Shown: positions 21,900 through 54,012 of the stretch, piece by piece
Position numbering within the stretch: the stretch's first letter is position 1
Layout: each line of letters opens with the position of its first letter
Source: a phage
Sequence record: PV730300.1
Reading direction: 5' to 3' (one strand)
DNA length: 64,000 bases
The notes under the pieces: generated by a model
The model's input: the letters and a program-made list of their open reading frames with translations, nothing else
What the model was told of the DNA's origin: nothing
The model's database searches: none
Translations under genes and position numbers: made by a program

Positions 21900-22090
21900 T
21901 TCTTTACGTACTCCATGATTGGGGTATGGTCGCCAGTAAGCGTAACACGGCTGTAGGACACATCTTGTGTCTTCAGTGTATCAATCCACTCTAAGAAGTG
22001 TTCTTTCGCTTCTGTGTAGTTCTGTGTGCCTTTAACAACGTGTATACCATCTAGAGTTACACGGAATACCATTTGAATAACGTCTTTCAT
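21896..22090 (-). CDS. hypothetical protein
   Basis: ORF. Confidence 0.35.
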   Translation of the reverse strand: MKDVIQMVFRVTLDGIHVVKGTQNYTEAKEHFLEWIDTLKTQDVSYSRVTLTGDHTPIMEYVKK

Positions 22091-22186
22091 TTCTTACCTC
22101 CTTTGTTGTCAAAATAACTTACCAGAACATCGTGAACCACACACATGGCAAAAATCAGAACAATTGTTGTCAGGACTGGATTCTCA

Positions 22187-22510
22187 CTAATTAGTGCTAT
22201 CATCTTTAACCACCTCCAATTGCCTTTCGAGTTTGACTTTGTTTGAGAACTGATAATGACACAACTTACATTGCATGTCAACAATCTGATCGTGATTTAA
22301 CCCTACAATTTTAACTTCCTTTGCACCATCCCACTCCAAATACTCAAAGCCATCCAAATGATTACTCTTGTCCAACAGGAATGCTATCTGCTGCCATTCA
22401 ATCTGAATGTCATTTAAATGATATGCTGCACAGAAGATATCCTCATAGTAAAAGACGATCATTGTCATTGCTTCGTCCAGCACAACTACCTCTTGTCTTG
22501 TAAATCTCAT
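22187..22510 (-). CDS. hypothetical protein (first gene of the leftward arm)
   Basis: ORF. Confidence 0.4.
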   Translation of the reverse strand: MRFTRQEVVVLDEAMTMIVFYYEDIFCAAYHLNDIQIEWQQIAFLLDKSNHLDGFEYLEWDGAKEVKIVGLNHDQIVDMQCKLCHYQFSNKVKLERQLEVVKDDSTN

Positions 22511-22621
22511 TCTAGCCTCCTAAACGCGTCTCTGACGCACTTTTTATATATAAGATGATAAATCACCTTACCTAGTAAGTGAACTTGCTCTACGAGCCTC
22601 TTATGAAGCTTATGTTATAGG

Positions 22622-22649
22622 TTATACTATTGCTACCTGTTTAAGCAAG
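22622..22649 (-). promoter_or_regulatory. sigma70-like promoter on minus strand (TTGCTT-N16-TATAAC)
   Basis: rc of 22644-22649 and 22622-22627; sits in the divergent control region. Confidence 0.4.
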
Positions 22650-22991
22650 GTTTTTGCACACAGAAAATAATTTTTAATAAAACTCTTGACTTTTGTGTTC
22701 GAAGTATGCTACCCTAGAAATCTATTAACGAGCGCAGCGAGTTAAGGTTTTAGGTTGTTGATGTAGTACTCTGTACTCAAGTACTGTACTCCGTACTAGA
22801 TTAATAATTATTAAATATTAATAATAAATAATTATTAGATCTAACAAACAGGTACAGTGTATCAGAACTGGTACGTACAGATCAACTTCTATCAATTAAA
22901 AATAAAATAATAAATTATTATAAATAATACTTGATCTATAGATCAGTATGAAGTACAGTACGGAACATCTTAACAAGAATGGAGGTGTGCA

Positions 22992-23177
22992 ATGATTAGT
23001 GAGAATCCGTGCAAATGGCATCATGTGCCTATTAAAGATTGTATGTCTTGTAATCCACGTTCTATTTATAACATTGCATCTTATGATGATGACAATGTGT
23101 TAGACGATGATGAAGGCTGGGAGGATTTGGATTGGACTGGTTATGAAACCAAAAAGGATAAAATTATTCCTAGTTGA
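22992..23177 (+). CDS. hypothetical protein
   Basis: ORF; GGAGG ribosome-binding site. Confidence 0.4.
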   Translation: MISENPCKWHHVPIKDCMSCNPRSIYNIASYDDDNVLDDDEGWEDLDWTGYETKKDKIIPS

Positions 23178-23214
23178 CTTAAGATATCCTTCGTGCTAAA
23201 CTAGAAGTGAGGAG

Positions 23215-23466
23215 ATGCCGATCACTCCCCATTTGGGGTTCGAAGGATATATGCAAAATAGCTTTTATTTTAGGTGCCGTGCTTGTAATAGGCATTTGAC
23301 AAACCACTCCAGACGTGATAAAAATGGAGTCATCAAGGAATCAGACCTCTGTTCTATTTGCACAGGTTTGGCTTTTGATGATAGTCCCGAAAGGGTTTAT
23401 CAGCATCAATGTATAACAGACGTTCTCGTGTCAAACTTGGTAGAGGACGAACAACTAACAGATTAG
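23215..23466 (+). CDS. small Cys-rich protein
   Basis: CRACN...CSICTG Cys pairs. Confidence 0.35.
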   Translation: MPITPHLGFEGYMQNSFYFRCRACNRHLTNHSRRDKNGVIKESDLCSICTGLAFDDSPERVYQHQCITDVLVSNLVEDEQLTD

Positions 23467-23475
23467 GAGGAACAA

Positions 23476-23723
23476 TGTCTCTATTAGAAAAACACGTGTT
23501 TGAAGATGGTAACGGCAATGCAGTTTTTCTTTTCCATCCAGAAAAATACACATCTGAAAACAATGGTACAACTTCTATTGTAATCACTAAAGATGTTAAA
23601 GTTATTGATTTCTTGGCTCTGATGCGAGAGATGGATCTTGAAATTAATACTTTTAACGCAGAAGCTTTGGTTGTTGCTCTTCTGGAAAAGAAAGATAGTG
23701 AAGAAGTAGCAGAATATGCTTAA
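23476..23723 (+). CDS. acidic hypothetical protein
   Basis: Start placed at MSLLEKHV with AGGAGG upstream. Confidence 0.4.
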
Positions 23724-23969: not shown

Positions 23970-24044
23970 GGCCCTGTAGCTCAATGGGAGAGCTGTCGGC
24001 TCATAACCGATAGGTAGCTGGATCGAAACCAGCCAGGGCCACCA
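23970..24044 (+). tRNA. tRNA-Met (anticodon CAT)
   Basis: Manual cloverleaf: acceptor GGCCCTG/CAGGGCC, anticodon loop CTCATAA, CCA encoded. Confidence 0.7.
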
Positions 24045-24046
24045 AC

Positions 24047-24121
24047 GTCTTTATGGTGTAATGGATAGCACAGGAGTCTTCTAAACTCTTAGTCAAGGTT
24101 CGATTCCTTGTAAAGACACCA
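24047..24121 (+). tRNA. tRNA-Arg (anticodon TCT)
   Basis: Acceptor GTCTTTA/TAAAGAC, anticodon loop CTTCTAA, T arm CAAGG-TTCGATT-CCTTG. Confidence 0.65.
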
Positions 24122-24122
24122 G

Positions 24123-24306
24123 AACATTTTAACATGAATTAGCTCAAGTGATTTGAACCCACTACTGATCATGGTGGCAGAGAATGAGGCAAGTATGTCA
24201 GACATTATAAACAAAGGCCACGGTTATATTAGAAGACATAAATGCTCGAAGAGCACCGTTCGTTGAGAACGGGGGTTGGTGGAGTCACCATTCATGGTAA
24301 AATGTT
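24123..24306 (+). ncRNA. candidate structured small RNA 2
   Basis: 16-nt terminal helix AACATTTTAACATGAA (24123-24138) / TTCATGGTAAAATGTT (24291-24306), 15 of 16 paired, enclosing several hairpins. Confidence 0.35.
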
Positions 24307-24317
24307 TTAAAAAACTA

Positions 24318-24347
24318 TTGACAACTAACATTATTTTATGTTAGATT
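24318..24347 (+). promoter_or_regulatory. sigma70-like promoter (internal to the tRNA cluster)
   Basis: AAACTATTGACA at 24318-24323, 17 nt, TGTTAGATT-type -10. Confidence 0.45.
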
Positions 24348-24355
24348 ATAAGTAT

Positions 24356-24446
24356 GGAAGGGCAAATCGACGTGGCGACGAAAACGGTCTTGAAAACCGC
24401 CGAGCTTGAAAGAGCCTTGGGAGTTCGACTCTCCCTCCTTCCGCCA
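24356..24446 (+). tRNA. tRNA-Ser (anticodon TGA), class II
   Basis: Acceptor GGAAGGG/TCCTTCC, anticodon loop CTTGAAA, long variable arm, CCA encoded. Confidence 0.7.
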
Positions 24447-24451
24447 GATTA

Positions 24452-24537
24452 GGTAGATTGGTGAAATGGTAGCCACGACAGTTTGCTAAACTGTAGTCGG
24501 AAACGGCGTGTAGGTTCGAGTCCTACATCTACCGCCA
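24452..24537 (+). tRNA. tRNA-Ser (anticodon GCT), class II
   Basis: Acceptor GGTAGAT/ATCTACC, anticodon loop TTGCTAA, long variable arm. Confidence 0.7.
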
Positions 24538-24667
24538 AGTTCTTTTTAATATAGCTTACTTTAATAGAGTAAACTTTCGGCAGATGGCCCCCACCATCTT
24601 ACCGATAACTCATAGTTAGTGGTGTGAACACTGGCTATTTTAAAAAGAATTTAAATATTAGTATTTA

Positions 24668-24755
24668 GGTGAGTTAATTCCGTAGGGGTAGCGGGGCAGA
24701 CTGTAAATCTGTTATCATTGCGATTCGGGTGGTTCGACTCCATCACTCACCACCA
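24668..24755 (+). tRNA. tRNA-Tyr (anticodon GTA), class II
   Basis: Acceptor GGTGAGT/ACTCACC, anticodon loop CTGTAAA. Confidence 0.7.
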
Positions 24756-24761
24756 AATTAA

Positions 24762-24847
24762 GATGAGTTGGCTGAATGGTTTAAGCGGCGGACTGTTAAT
24801 CCGTGTTCGAAAGAACGATATAGGTTCAAATCCTATACTCATCGCCA
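24762..24847 (+). tRNA. class II tRNA, isotype uncertain (anticodon loop reads CTGTTAA, i.e. GTT)
   Basis: Acceptor GATGAGT/ACTCATC, T arm ATAGG-TTCAAAT-CCTAT, about 15-nt variable arm; anticodon assignment ambiguous by hand. Confidence 0.45.
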
Positions 24848-24937
24848 GAATTATGGACTTGTAGAGTTAAGGTAAACCCCCAGTCGCCAAGAGGCTTCTG
24901 AAATTGCAGGTATCGAATCCTGCCGAGTCCCAGCTTT

Positions 24938-25012
24938 GCTCCTATAGTATAATGGCTATTACAACGGTTTTGTAATCCGTGGATCTCTGTTCGATTCAGA
25001 GTGGGAGCACCA
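24938..25012 (+). tRNA. tRNA-Thr (anticodon TGT)
   Basis: Acceptor GCTCCTA/TGGGAGC, anticodon loop TTTGTAA, T arm CTCTG-TTCGATT-CAGAG. Confidence 0.6.
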
Positions 25013-25287
25013 ACACAACATTAAGAGCACTGTGATTGATCGTCGTATCCTGTGCACAAGGTCTGTTCGAAAGACAGTGTTCTTAGTATTGTGTTGATCA
25101 CACAAAAAGAGTTACCTGAAACTTGACCGGAGTAGGGTTGGATGGGGCAAAAGAAGAAGCGGCTCTCCCATCGACAGCAACGAAGAATAATATTTGACTT
25201 TGGTTTTGTATTATTTTAAGTTAGCTTACCGAACGTAGGGCTAGTCACCCAATGGGATACTCGTCACTGTCCCACTCAATAAAACTA

Positions 25288-25317
25288 TTGACAACCAATA
25301 GTAAAATGTAGTATAGT
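25288..25317 (+). promoter_or_regulatory. sigma70-like promoter (internal to the tRNA cluster)
   Basis: AAACTATTGACA at 25288-25293, about 18 nt, TATAGT. Confidence 0.45.
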
Positions 25318-25328
25318 AAAGATGTAGG

Positions 25329-25403
25329 GCGTTCTTGGTGTAGCGGTAGCATTCCGTCCTTCCAAGTCGGCGGCACGAGTTCGATCCTCGTAGAACGCTC
25401 CAA
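25329..25403 (+). tRNA. tRNA-Gly (anticodon TCC)
   Basis: Acceptor GCGTTCT/AGAACGC, anticodon loop CTTCCAA, T arm ACGAG-TTCGATC-CTCGT. Confidence 0.7.
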
Positions 25404-25500
25404 ATTATTTAATAAAGGGTTGCCAGAAAACTTTCTCTTTTACTCATGGTTTTCTCCTTCTCTCACACCTCTTCTGGTTGCCCTTCATTAAATGATTTAT

Positions 25501-25576
25501 TGGTTTGTAGTGTAGTCCGGTAGCACACGACACTTTGACTGTCGTAGGTTTGGTTCAAATCCAGACAGACCAGCCA
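25501..25576 (+). tRNA. tRNA-Gln (anticodon TTG)
   Basis: Anticodon stem CGACA/TGTCG, loop CTTTGAC, T loop TTCAAAT. Confidence 0.7.
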
Positions 25577-25581
25577 TATAA

Positions 25582-25658
25582 CGGAATTTAGCTCAGTTTG
25601 GTAGAGCATACGCTTTGGGAGCGTAGGGTCGCAGGTTCGAATCCTGCAATTCCGACCA
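25582..25658 (+). tRNA. tRNA-Pro (anticodon TGG)
   Basis: Acceptor CGGAATT/AATTCCG, D stem GCTC/GAGC, anticodon loop TTTGGGA, T arm CGCAGG-TTCGAAT-CCTGC. Confidence 0.8.
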
Positions 25659-25664
25659 ATTTAA

Positions 25665-25738
25665 TGTTTCGTAGTTCAATGGTAGAACCCACGACTGATA
25701 ATCGTGAGACACAAGTTCGATTCTTGTCGAAACAACCA
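25665..25738 (+). tRNA. tRNA-Ile (anticodon GAT)
   Basis: Acceptor TGTTTCG/CGAAACA, anticodon stem CACGA/TCGTG, loop CTGATAA. Confidence 0.75.
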
Positions 25739-25740
25739 GT

Positions 25741-25810
25741 TTCCCGTTAGACTTACAGGATAAGAGTTCCACAGCTTATTGTGATGCTGGTTCGAATCCA
25801 GCACGGGATA
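25741..25810 (+). tRNA. putative tRNA, anticodon not assignable by hand
   Basis: Canonical T arm GCTGG-TTCGAAT-CCAGC and pairing acceptor ends, but no clean anticodon arm could be folded. Confidence 0.3.
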
Positions 25811-25816
25811 CCTAAT

Positions 25817-25895
25817 AGCGGGATAGAGGAGTCTGGTCGTCCTCGCCAGTTTCATATGCTGGAGATCATCGGTTCGAATCCGATTCCCGCCTCCA
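25817..25895 (+). tRNA. tRNA-Met (anticodon CAT), possibly initiator-like or Ile2-type
   Basis: Anticodon loop TTCATAT, T arm ATCGG-TTCGAAT-CCGAT, A1-C72 mismatch at the top of the acceptor stem. Confidence 0.6.
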
Positions 25896-40937: not shown

Positions 40938-40994
40938 AAATTAACGCCTTAACTTAGGGGCTAATGTGTAGTGATACACATTATCAACTTTGTG

Positions 40995-41185
40995 AATTGC
41001 TGGGACACCCTTAGAGCCACACTACCACTGCGAATCGAAAGATGAAGCCACGGTTTGAAAAGTGTGTGGATTGGGTAATCAGCAGCCAAGCTCCGTTTAG
41101 GAGAAGGTTCAACGACTATCCCGTAAGGGAGTAGGATCAAGTGGTCCGAAGCGCAAAGCGTCTCATGTAGATGAAGATATAGTCT
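40995..41185 (+). ncRNA. group I intron catalytic core (P, Q, R, S elements)
   Basis: P-like AATTGCTGGGAC (40995-41006), Q AATCAGCAGC (41077-41086), R GTTCAACGACTA (41107-41118), S AAGATATAGTCT (41174-41185), in canonical order, with GACTAT/ATAGTC able to form P7. Confidence 0.7.
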
Positions 41186-41264
41186 AATCTGTAGGGAAAC
41201 TTACAGCAGCGAAAGCGGGGAAGAATTAACGAATCTTCCCGAATACAATGCAAAAATTAGTAAC

Positions 41265-52371: not shown

Positions 52372-54012
52372 ATGTCAACTACAATTACTAATTTACCTGA
52401 AACATCAAAAGTTAATGGTTCTGATTACCTGGTTTTAGACCAACCTGATAAGACTGTTAAAAGCACAGTTTCCAACTTTCTTACTGACACTGGGGTGGTT
52501 TTAGCCACCCAGTTGAAAGATACAGATGGAGCAGGTTTAGTTAACACATCTAGCGGAGATTCAGTCCAAACCGTTATTGATTATCTGATAGATACTGACC
52601 TGGCTCATCTTAGTAATCTGGCTACTGCCAAAGCGTCTACCATTAAAGCCAACAACATTAATATTGCTTATAAATATGGTAATGTTTCTTATCTCTCTAC
52701 CGGCACTACTGGTACGCCTTCAACTGGTAACGCACATACTTTTTATGATGCAACTGGTAAGGGGTTTAAGATAAATGCACCGCAACGGCAGAAAAACACT
52801 TCTGGTGTAATAGCATTCTCGGAAGTATGGACTAAGTTAGATTTAGACCCTACTCTATTCGAAAAAGCAATATCGCTAGGAATTGGTACATTCATGTTCT
52901 ATACCTGGACAGCGCCAGTACAGACATATAAAGATTTCCTCGACCTTGCGAGTATTTACGGATTTGATGTTATTTTACAGGCAGTACCAAATAGTACGTA
53001 TTCATCCGACCTGGACGCGGATTTCGCTAAACTGTCTCCTTTATTCGACCATGACGCTGTAGTAGGGTTATACCTATTCGACGAGCCGAACTTGTCTACA
53101 TACCCTCTTACCCGCCAGGGTGAGATTATTGCTAAAGCGAAAACACTTAGTAACCTACCGCTGTACGCCGCTAGTAATGCAGAAGTTAACGGGGAATCTC
53201 TACCACTCCATATGGATATTGATTACGTATTTACATCCCAGTACGCGCATTTCATAGGTGCAGTTGGTATCCGTCGATACGCTGCCTCTATGTGGTCGGC
53301 TATGGAGGAGGAGGGGATGAGGGCAGGACGTATCATCCCGTTACTAACAGCGTATTGGTATGAGAACGAGGCCCCAACTTTAAAATCCGCACAGATTACA
53401 GCGGTTAATAACTTCATCTGTAAAAACTTTTCTAAGATTGGCATGTGGGCTTTCTATGCTAATAAAAATGGGCACTTTCTGGAAAACGATGACCAGATAT
53501 ATAATCTCGTGAAACAAAGTCTTGCCATCCGCAAGAGTAAAATAAAAGACTGTAAGTTGATACGTACACTATTCCGAAAGGCTAACGCCCTGCCCGCTAA
53601 CTGCTATAAATACCAGACAAAACCAACTGTCGTAGGGGATGTGTTCTGGCTAGATCCTGCATCAACCGCTACATGGAACGACCCCGCAGGAGTTATTCGA
53701 ATTAAGACAGGGGAGCAATTCGCCATAAACTTTGGGCGACCAGTACGTCTGGAGGCGATTATAGCAGCTTTCACCGACAACAACGGTTCAAGTAACAGCG
53801 CCACCCTGTCCCTCACTTTCAACCCAACTATCGCATCTGGTAGGGTGTATGATACTACTGTCACAAAAGTAGGCGGCGGCGATTTTGAGTGGTTTTTTAC
53901 GGATTTATCGAACCCACCACATTTAGTTACTACAGTGGCTATAAAGGTTGTATCGTCTACTGGCTCTGACTATCTGATATTGGAGCGTATTGGTTTTGTA
54001 GTAACTGAGTAA
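52372..54012 (+). CDS. tail protein with possible glycosidase-like domain
   Basis: 546 aa; central region suggestive of a TIM-barrel glycosidase; terminator follows. Confidence 0.4.
   Translation: MSTTITNLPETSKVNGSDYLVLDQPDKTVKSTVSNFLTDTGVVLATQLKDTDGAGLVNTSSGDSVQTVIDYLIDTDLAHLSNLATAKASTIKANNINIAYKYGNVSYLSTGTTGTPSTGNAHTFYDATGKGFKINAPQRQKNTSGVIAFSEVWTKLDLDPTLFEKAISLGIGTFMFYTWTAPVQTYKDFLDLASIYGFDVILQAVPNSTYSSDLDADFAKLSPLFDHDAVVGLYLFDEPNLSTYPLTRQGEIIAKAKTLSNLPLYAASNAEVNGESLPLHMDIDYVFTSQYAHFIGAVGIRRYAASMWSAMEEEGMRAGRIIPLLTAYWYENEAPTLKSAQITAVNNFICKNFSKIGMWAFYANKNGHFLENDDQIYNLVKQSLAIRKSKIKDCKLIRTLFRKANALPANCYKYQTKPTVVGDVFWLDPASTATWNDPAGVIRIKTGEQFAINFGRPVRLEAIIAAFTDNNGSSNSATLSLTFNPTIASGRVYDTTVTKVGGGDFEWFFTDLSNPPHLVTTVAIKVVSSTGSDYLILERIGFVVTE

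Follow-up and report, generated by a model that had tools for sequence, protein, structure and literature searches.

Conserved putative promoters and a promoter-proximal hairpin in a divergent gap of a Phapecoctavirus genome: a candidate early-transcription hub

The primary replication origin of bacteriophage T7 comprises two promoters (phi1.1A and phi1.1B) with a 61-bp A+T-rich region after them, and the T4 origins ori(uvsY) and ori(34) pair a promoter with a DNA unwinding element downstream. Here, we compare these and other described systems with a 481-base gap between two divergent genes, at positions 22511–22991 of a 64,000-nucleotide stretch of phage DNA (record PV730300.1, hereafter the window). 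The gap holds a candidate leftward promoter (PL), two candidate rightward promoters in tandem (P1 and P2), a conserved hairpin directly downstream of P1, two A+T tracts and an array of five GTACT repeats. Its layout resembles the T7 and T4 origins in that promoters would fire into an extreme A+T tract, and the likeness extends to a Pol I-type polymerase, a helicase of the phage's own and several candidate sites per genome. It differs in that the promoters are early promoters of the host sigma-70 type, that a hairpin lies between promoter and A+T tract, and that an origin is here read from sequence only. We propose that the gap may be an early-transcription hub of the phage, and assign this reading a probability of about 0.55. 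Phapecoctaviruses and their relatives (phi92 and rV5-like phages) are in wide use in phage-therapy collections.

The origin of ColE1/pMB1-type plasmids with its primosome assembly signal ssiA (n'-pas) provides a second comparison. Two papers locate ssiA, an n' primosome assembly signal, on the strand that Pol I extension exposes, no more than ~420 nt beyond the RNA/DNA switch and close to a DnaA box. An identical core, CGAGCG-N-AGCGAG, is found in the plasmids on the strand displaced by primer transcription and in the phage hairpin, and both vary alike, through changes of the loop base and flips of the closing pair. In the plasmids, however, ~690 nt separate the hairpin from the RNA II promoter; it follows the switch by ~135 nt and the DnaA box by 60 nt, and AAGCGG comes 13 nt after the core, whereas the phage copy occupies nucleotides 5–25 from the predicted start and has neither the AAGCGG motif nor a DnaA box beside it.

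Iteron origins (lambda ori; the plasmids P1, F and R6K) likewise place direct repeats beside an A+T-rich region, but iterons are ~17–22 bp long, phased and located in or next to an initiator gene, whereas the repeat units in the gap are 5 bp long, spaced by 5–8 bp, unconserved and without a known initiator. The RfaH ops element (GGCGGTAGCGTG), a non-template-strand hairpin in operon leaders, resembles the phage element in that both are small GC-G(N)NA-GC hairpins in leaders of long operons, and 9 of 12 positions of ops agree with the 4-nt-loop variant AGCGATAGCGAG of the phage hairpin. The loop of the window copy, however, is 3 nt long, and the 4-nt-loop variant has an A at the position of ops G5; RfaH needs both G5 and T6.

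Among related phages, bidirectional promoters have been reported for rV5 at one divergent junction, genes 10/11, and the rV5-like early promoters resemble those of the gap in serving divergent long early operons and in being of sigma-70 type, some with an extended -10 (PMC3606486). That paper describes no promoter-coupled hairpin, extreme A+T tract or short repeats. The PeSL cassettes of T4-type phages also combine an early promoter with a stem-loop and recur several times per genome (PMC4122927). Identity with PeSL was rejected, as the PeSL stem-loop is terminator-like and lies upstream of its promoter (PMC4122927), whereas the hairpin of the gap lies downstream, in the initial transcribed region.

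Conserved layout of the gap

The gap is non-coding, lies at a switch of coding strand and carries conserved promoter-like hexamers facing both ways, a conserved hairpin and an extreme A+T tract. It separates a 107-aa gene on the minus strand (22187–22510) from a 61-aa gene on the plus strand (22992–23177), downstream of which follows a cluster of ten tRNA genes (23970–25895). An earlier interpretation of the window, the sequence-only reading, held that transcription changes orientation here, and open reading frames (ORFs) of at least 120 aa agree: 20 on the minus and 2 on the plus strand to the left, 32 on the plus and 3 on the minus strand to the right. No credible ORF was found within the gap, and a hidden small gene is thereby rejected. 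The GC skew also changes sign at ~22 kb. Because skew switches follow the direction of transcription in rV5 (Kropinski et al. 2013, PMC3606486), this change is no evidence for an origin.

Positions 22000–23500 are 99.6% identical to Escherichia phage Mt1B1_P17 and match 71 phage records, nearly all of them Phapecoctavirus (Stephanstirmvirinae); judged by these matches, the window is that of a Phapecoctavirus, a phAPEC8-type coliphage. In 62 of the 71 records, identity over the whole gap reaches 95% or more. For comparison we used ten close relatives, the more distantly related phiWec188/179 clade, in which flanking genes and tRNA cluster are retained, phi92 (Justusliebigvirus), and the Klebsiella phages FKP3 and KP13-16. 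FKP3 was compared at the same junction; the KP13-16 module lies between co-directional genes and resembles the second module of Mt1B1_P17 (see below). Four lineages (the window, phiWec188, phi92 and FKP3) have conserved the leftward promoter, P1, the hairpin, and an A+T tract followed by P2. The intervening ~180 bp, from the hairpin to the A+T tract upstream of P2, lack conservation between lineages. Among 11 relatives, insertions and deletions fall in the P1 leader; P1 does not vary, nor do the hairpin, the arms of A+T tract 1 or the P2 -35.

Candidate promoters facing both ways had also been predicted, and three sigma-70-type sites were located, one leftward and two rightward. They were accepted as such on the criteria of hexamers 16–18 bp apart and of A at position 2 and T at position 6 of the -10. 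PL (22621–22648, minus strand) consists of a -35 TTGCTT (22648–22643), a 16-bp spacer and a -10 TATAAC (22626–22621), and would drive the minus-strand early operon that starts at 22510. It is retained in 11 relatives; a 7-nt deletion in phAPEC8 spares the -10, and a deletion in EP57 recreates TATTAA at unchanged spacing. The 5' untranslated region of the leftward mRNA contains a small GC hairpin, GCGTC-NNN-GACGC (22526–22538, minus strand), just before the ribosome-binding site, and phiWec188 has an equivalent GCGT...ACGC hairpin.

P1 (22686–22715, plus strand) is an extended -10 promoter: -35 TTGACT (22686–22691), an 18-bp spacer ending in TGc, and -10 TACCCT (22710–22715), with a predicted start near 22720–22724. 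It is invariant in 11 close relatives, and the same arrangement, TTGAC(T/A)-N17/18-(T/C/G)(A/G)TG(C/G/A)-TACCCT, recurs in phiWec188, phi92, FKP3, KP13-16 and two further loci of Mt1B1_P17, with the odd -10 and the TG extension kept everywhere. P2 (22931–22959, plus strand) has the -35 TTGATC (22931–22936), a 17-bp spacer containing AGATC, and the -10 TACAGT (22954–22959). Its homologue in phi92 and phiWec188 reads TTGACT-ttAGATCT-N-TAGAGT, so that AGATC(T) in the spacer is conserved; P1 with its hairpin and P2 with this spacer are kept in the window, phiWec188, phi92 and FKP3. The EP57 record lacks the P2 -10. An enrichment of GATC or AGATCT, which would have suggested Dam and SeqA, was rejected: GATC occurs at an observed/expected ratio (O/E) of 0.94 with no density peak at the gap, and only the AGATC of the P2 spacer is conserved.

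The hairpin (22725–22745, plus strand) is built from an outer stem TTAA/TTAA, a closing C:G pair, tandem G.A/A.G pairs, a GC/GC stem and a GCA loop of the GNA type. It spans +5 to +25 of the P1 transcript, and its core, CGAGCGCAGCGAG (22729–22741), is unique in the window even when up to 3 mismatches are allowed. In the lineages compared, the core CGAGCG-N-AGCGAG lies 13–16 nt past P1 and follows the form C-GA-GC-GNA-GC-GA-G with a loop of 3 or 4 nt (GNA or GNNA). The outer stem differs in sequence but stays paired: TTAA/TTAA in the window, CCCC/GGGG in L045, GGG/CCC in L052 and CCTAT/ATAGG in L055, which has a GAAA loop. In phi92 only one pair of the adjacent flank remains, and a G run pairs with a C run further upstream. 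Over 23 sequences, 77.6% of cells are paired, a value that none of 500 shuffles reached, against 65.7% after shuffling and 29–38% when the partner was slid; the first flanking pair alone takes four pair types, and the outer stem thus covaries. Because the G.A and G.U pairs form on the sense strand only and the loop varies between 3 and 4 nt, we read the element as a hairpin of RNA or of non-template DNA, not as a duplex operator.

Promoter and hairpin recur as a unit. Mt1B1_P17 has three copies, at the equivalent of 22686–22745 of the window, at L019:16862–16925 and at L018:15013–15070, and the module TTGACT-N17/18-TGnTACCCT plus core occurs three times per genome in four Stephanstirmvirinae lineages. 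Three module loci are likewise present in each of three large IMG/VR contigs. The pattern TACCCTA-N6-24-core matched 75 sites in 52 IMG/VR stretches, among them those of an unrelated family with an SU10-type portal, where a back-to-back pair of copies stands upstream of the terminase gene. A reversed control pattern gave 9 singletons, none with at least three flanking pairs, against 11 of 36 distinct real sites. Searching Rfam 15 for the leader and hairpin returned nothing at the gathering score, and only noise (E up to 10) in 22450–23300.

A+T tract 1 (22797–22843) is a 16/17-bp inverted repeat with arms at 22797–22812 and 22827–22843 around a 14-nt A+T loop. The arms are invariant in 11 relatives; phAPEC8 has a 3-nt deletion in the loop, and a C inserted in UP17 perfects the arms. 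A+T tract 2 (22894–22929) consists of 36 bp of 100% A+T directly upstream of the P2 -35, where an UP element would lie, and a tract of 87–95% A+T occupies the same place in phi92, FKP3 and phiWec188. By nearest-neighbour energies over 145 kb, the two least stable 40-mers are 22797–22836 (-34.2 kcal/mol) and 22889–22928 (-35.6 kcal/mol), compared with a mean of -51.4 kcal/mol (sd 3.3) and a next weakest value of -38.9, and 22760–22959 is the least stable 200-mer.

The GTACT array, the palindromes and the leader RNA

The five GTACT repeats reported in the sequence-only reading are present, with starts at 22766, 22773, 22781, 22786 and 22793. Counted from the P1 start, the array (22766–22797, plus strand) occupies about +45 to +75 of the leader. 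No 4-mer is more depleted in the window than GTAC: a second-order Markov model predicts 199 sites, 58 are observed (O/E 0.29), and 10 of these fall within 197 bp of the gap. The probability of at least five GTAC sites in 34 bp is ~9e-11 per position, or ~6e-6 corrected for the window, and a further 81 kb of Mt1B1_P17, at ~1 GTAC per kb, contained no comparable cluster. The array probably stands out only because the genome is otherwise purged of GTAC.

Only one other GTAC-dense zone was seen, at 52.7–54.7 kb, with ~6 sites per kb. It begins in a 546-aa ORF (52372–54012) that, read without a domain search, has the look of a tail fibre or tail spike, and would be consistent with recently imported DNA in a GTAC-purged genome.

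The sequence-only reading took the region for an origin of replication and/or an operator array for a GTAC-recognising regulator, and had named the absence of the repeats from related phages of the same gene order as one observation that would refute it. The phiWec188/179 clade presents exactly this situation, with gene order unchanged and no GTAC between P1 and P2 in phiWec188, and the GTAC repeats are not supported as the functional core, be it as iterons or as an operator array. At the matching place phi92 has ATACT-type repeats, ATACTAACATACATACTCTATACTAACA, with A for G. Among close relatives the copy number ranges from 3 to 5, and all five copies are intact in 8 of 11 aligned genomes. 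In dw-ec 13 nt (22771–22783) are lost and with them two GTACT copies, the third copy in phAPEC8 reads GCACT, and in nieznany a deletion of ~67 bp (about 22856 to 22922) includes the right-hand GTAC elements described below. The deletion endpoints lie in direct repeats, in dw-ec in the repeats themselves, which points to slippage as the origin of these changes; one such pair of direct repeats, D1, is at 22803–22841 and 22906–22944. At spacings of 7, 8, 5 and 7 bp the copies are out of helical phase and do not share one face of the helix, and the 5-bp units contrast with iterons, which are direct repeats of ~17–22 bp phased at ~11 or 22 bp and conserved wherever the replication module is shared. 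We conclude that the GTACT array is, on these alignments, the least conserved part of the region and dispensable, and probably a young, clade-specific tandem repeat that is resized by slippage and has no conserved role. For scans of sequence this is a caution, given that these repeats are what catches the eye.

In BI-EHEC, 9 of the 10 GTAC sites of the gap read ATAC or GTAT, in a nanopore-only assembly that may carry errors. Over 47 kb of this record (L015, 32200–82199), 20 of 36 shared GTAC sites are lost, mostly by GTAC to ATAC changes and some with indels. One indel falls at a GTAC site inside an ORF, yet 7 of 11 coding changes are synonymous. The loss is ambiguous between stronger purging and base-calling error at modified GTAC, and BI-EHEC as proof that the G of the array is dispensable was dropped on account of the nanopore-only record and the ORF indel. 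A phage-encoded GTAC methylase is unsupported, since gp233 (L018:1746–2255) and gp216 (L018:8672–9355) of Mt1B1_P17, both annotated as DNA methyltransferases and both belonging to the leftward early operon, have no Pfam match at E up to 0.01, which leaves their annotation unsupported as well.

Perfect AT palindromes had been listed as further elements of a control region. They are indeed present, but their number does not exceed chance: the whole window contains 21 palindromes of at least 12 bp, compared with 20.3 +/- 4.1 in shuffles that keep local composition. One, the 14-bp TTAATAATTATTAA (22801–22814), is inside A+T tract 1, a 97% A+T tract in which palindromes form cheaply. The other, GATCTATAGATC (22933–22944), is the inner part of the 14-bp palindrome TGATCTATAGATCA (22932–22945) and, as we read the hexamers, is the -35 and spacer of P2. 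The GTAC elements reported to the right of the array are also where they were described, GGTACAG at 22851–22857, GGTACGTACAG at 22870–22880 and AGTACAGTAC at 22952–22961. By the same reading of the hexamers AGTACAGTAC is part of P2, namely its -10, of which TACAGT at 22853–22858 is a copy. All right-hand GTAC elements thus fall either in the stretch deleted in nieznany or in the P2 -10.

The P1 leader is predicted to fold more stably than expected (z = -3.2; none of 200 shuffles is as stable), into a long imperfect hairpin at 22757–22895 in which the GTACT arm pairs with an arm formed by GGTACAG and GGTACGTACAG (22851–22880, plus strand). Comparable values were obtained for FKP3 (z = -3.4) and for variants within the clade (-2.5 to -3.9).

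The hairpin core in plasmids and the readings of the gap

A 13–14-mer core is shared with ColE1-type plasmids, and the 14-mer CCGAGCGCAGCGAG is common to phi92 and pMB1/ColE1-type plasmids. The core, which is part of the pBR322/pUC backbone, was first seen in papers that print plasmid or primer sequences. A 76-nt pBR322 stretch served as query. It found a match at 100% and, at an identity of 80% or higher, at least 5000 plasmid records, almost all of them above 90%. The version of the core in a natural Rop-carrying plasmid, CGAGCGTAGCGAG, is on the RNA II-sense, that is, the displaced strand. At the plasmid loci (L080:700–780, L081:300–360 and L082:300–360) the loop base varies, being C or T, and the closing pair changes from C:G to G:C, the latter in two divergent plasmids. 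From its position, the plasmid hairpin would belong to ssiA. The phage hairpin shares with ssiA its place on the displaced strand (the sense strand of P1, the RNA II-sense strand in plasmids), but the similarity does not extend over the full ~70 nt including AAGCGG: only the 13–14-nt core is shared, and no AAGCGG follows it.

Many soil bacteria, including Acidobacteria, Planctomycetes, Chloroflexi and Bacteroidales, carry the same core within long perfect palindromes, GTCATTCCGAGCG(N)AGCGAGGAATC, of which it forms one arm (for example L105:6555–6657 and L133:3204–3280, among L083–L202). These palindromes look like repeats of the MITE (miniature inverted-repeat transposable element) type, and Rfam has no family for them. 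A bipartite pattern tried on bacterial genomes was rejected, its matches being near the number estimated for chance and scattered over many phyla. The core is therefore a widely reused, intrinsically stable hairpin, which weakens any single functional reading of it.

In the early-transcription hub that we propose, host sigma-70 RNA polymerase would transcribe leftward from PL, into a block of small early genes ~34 kb long, and rightward from the tandem promoters P1 and P2, into the 61-aa gene, further small genes and the tRNA cluster. The P1 transcript, or the displaced non-template strand, would begin with the very stable conserved hairpin, and the 36-bp pure A+T tract would serve P2 from the UP-element position. 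The five GTACT copies would be embedded in the ~200-nt P1 leader, between the conserved parts, and would at most form one arm of its long imperfect hairpin rather than an iteron or operator array; the promoter-hairpin module and the A+T tract may additionally serve DNA replication. Several observations weigh against this proposal. The promoters are matches to a consensus, and a generic scan found no excess of such sites over shuffles; the P1 -10, with its three C's, is unusual; and one module copy (L018:15013) is antisense to its flanking genes, which is odd for a plain mRNA promoter. The leader of phi92 has no excess folding (z = +0.25), and the long leader hairpin has no support from covariation in 11 sequences, which are too similar, 47 of its 53 pairs never varying. 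Finally, the ten GTAC sites persist in ~65 genomes that otherwise purge GTAC, and their survival argues either for constraint on the array or for a very recent origin.

A transcription-primed origin of the ColE1/T7/T4 type is compatible with the hub and is, in our view, a possible though tentative addition to it. P1 transcription might form an R-loop, and the displaced plus strand might then fold into the hairpin, which might signal single-strand initiation or helicase loading to PriA and DnaB of the host or to the phage's own T7 gp4-like helicase; we hold either step no more firmly than the origin as a whole. With equal reserve, the A+T tracts 75–200 bp downstream could melt and set up the fork, and the three promoter-hairpin modules could be three origins, as in T4. 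The sense-strand specificity of the hairpin, its loop length varying between 3 and 4 nt and its covarying outer stem fit this picture, as does the occurrence of the core on the displaced strand of ColE1-type plasmids in the region where the literature places ssiA. The weakest DNA of the 145 kb, both 40-mers and the 200-mer, lies just downstream of the hairpin, P1 leads into the easily unwound tracts 1 and 2, three modules per genome are found in four lineages with one of them antisense to its neighbours, and the phage encodes a Pol I-type polymerase, a helicase and a single-strand binding protein (SSB). On the other hand, the AAGCGG motif of the plasmids is absent from the window copy. The core's use as an arm of MITE-like palindromes suggests that it may be a generally stable hairpin, for instance one that protects RNA 5' ends; module copy 2 has no unusually weak duplex nearby; and A+T tracts upstream of strong promoters are ordinary UP elements. 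Nor does the window point to a DnaA-dependent origin, as no cluster of DnaA boxes (TTWTNCACA) was found, the gap has one box, and the window has 7 against 9.65 expected. A wider idea, which we regard as more speculative still, is that the hairpin C-GA-GC-G(N1-2)A-GC-GA-G is a portable single-strand initiation signal and the three modules the replication origins of Stephanstirmvirinae: an early promoter would expose the hairpin on the displaced strand, and host primosome or phage helicase-primase might, with the same low confidence, load by the weakest duplex. The presence of the hairpin beside the ColE1 origin, in other phage lineages and in MITE-like repeats points to a single structural signal in wide reuse, not known to have been described as one.

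That the leader acts as a structured RNA appears unlikely, more so than either form of origin. Here, the P1 transcript would fold at 22757–22895 with the A+T palindrome at the tip, as an RNase III site or an attenuator that tunes P1 transcription into the 61-aa gene and the tRNAs, and with the 5' hairpin protecting the RNA end, a role we consider equally doubtful. In T7, RNase III cleaves early mRNAs at irregular hairpins of a comparable kind. The excess stability in the window, in FKP3 and in the clade variants would agree, and three natural changes leave the pairing intact or improve it (C:G to U.G, G:C to G.U, and the C gained in UP17). Yet none of the changes is compensatory, nieznany is without most of the right arm, the phi92 leader is unremarkable, the stability comes mostly from the A+T palindrome, and no U-tract terminator follows the hairpin. 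Least probable by far is that the GTAC(T) repeats are iterons or operators for a GTAC-recognising protein that controls promoters or replication. Such a model could draw on the statistical extremity of the cluster, unique in a GTAC-avoiding genome, on the inverted GTAC elements to the right and in the P2 -10, on the copies left intact in most aligned genomes and on the overall identity of the gap among the records. The phiWec188/179 clade, the A for G in phi92, the variable copy number and, with its possible errors, the nanopore record of BI-EHEC all argue against it, as do the unphased spacing and units far shorter than known iterons. At 45–75 bp past the P1 start and 135 bp short of P2, the array is also poorly placed for a classical operator, and the neighbouring small proteins lack a Pfam DNA-binding domain.

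For experiments, the gap offers as targets three candidate promoters, a conserved hairpin that recurs three times in each genome and the DNA that melts most readily in the genome. If the module is an origin, it would link phage replication with the ColE1 primosome assembly signal.

Neighbouring genes and other observations

No Pfam domain was found in the flanking 107-aa and 61-aa proteins, and thus no detectable DNA-binding domain; a search of IMG/VR for relatives through the 107-aa protein returned nothing. The 61-aa protein has a C-x-HH...C-xx-C motif and an acidic tail and may bind zinc. It is 82–83% identical in the phiWec clade, and because it is kept in this clade, which is without the GTACT array, it is not tied to the repeats. 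Directly 3' of its gene lies a further promoter, TTGACT-N17-TAAACT (23174–23202), followed by a GGAG...CTCC hairpin (23205–23235), and both are kept in the phiWec-type contig L005. On the other side of the gap, an additional gene of 70 aa on the minus strand separates the 107-aa gene from P1 in the phiWec clade (phiWec188, L002:2573–2785), which shows that a gene insertion is tolerated on the left.

Three records of Danish wastewater phages annotate a 55-bp repeat_region within the gap. In nepoznato (L001:3907–3961) and anhysbys (L010:381–435) it occupies different sub-positions, and neither record explains it. A genome terminus at the gap was rejected: the gap is 54.5 kb from the end, assuming that the Schickermooser record, for which a 328-bp terminal repeat is reported, starts at that repeat. 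The nieznany record starts inside the gene neighbouring the gap. Elsewhere in the window, a group I intron (Rfam RF00028, 92.9 bits) was identified on the plus strand at 40938–41206, in a region of late or replication genes.

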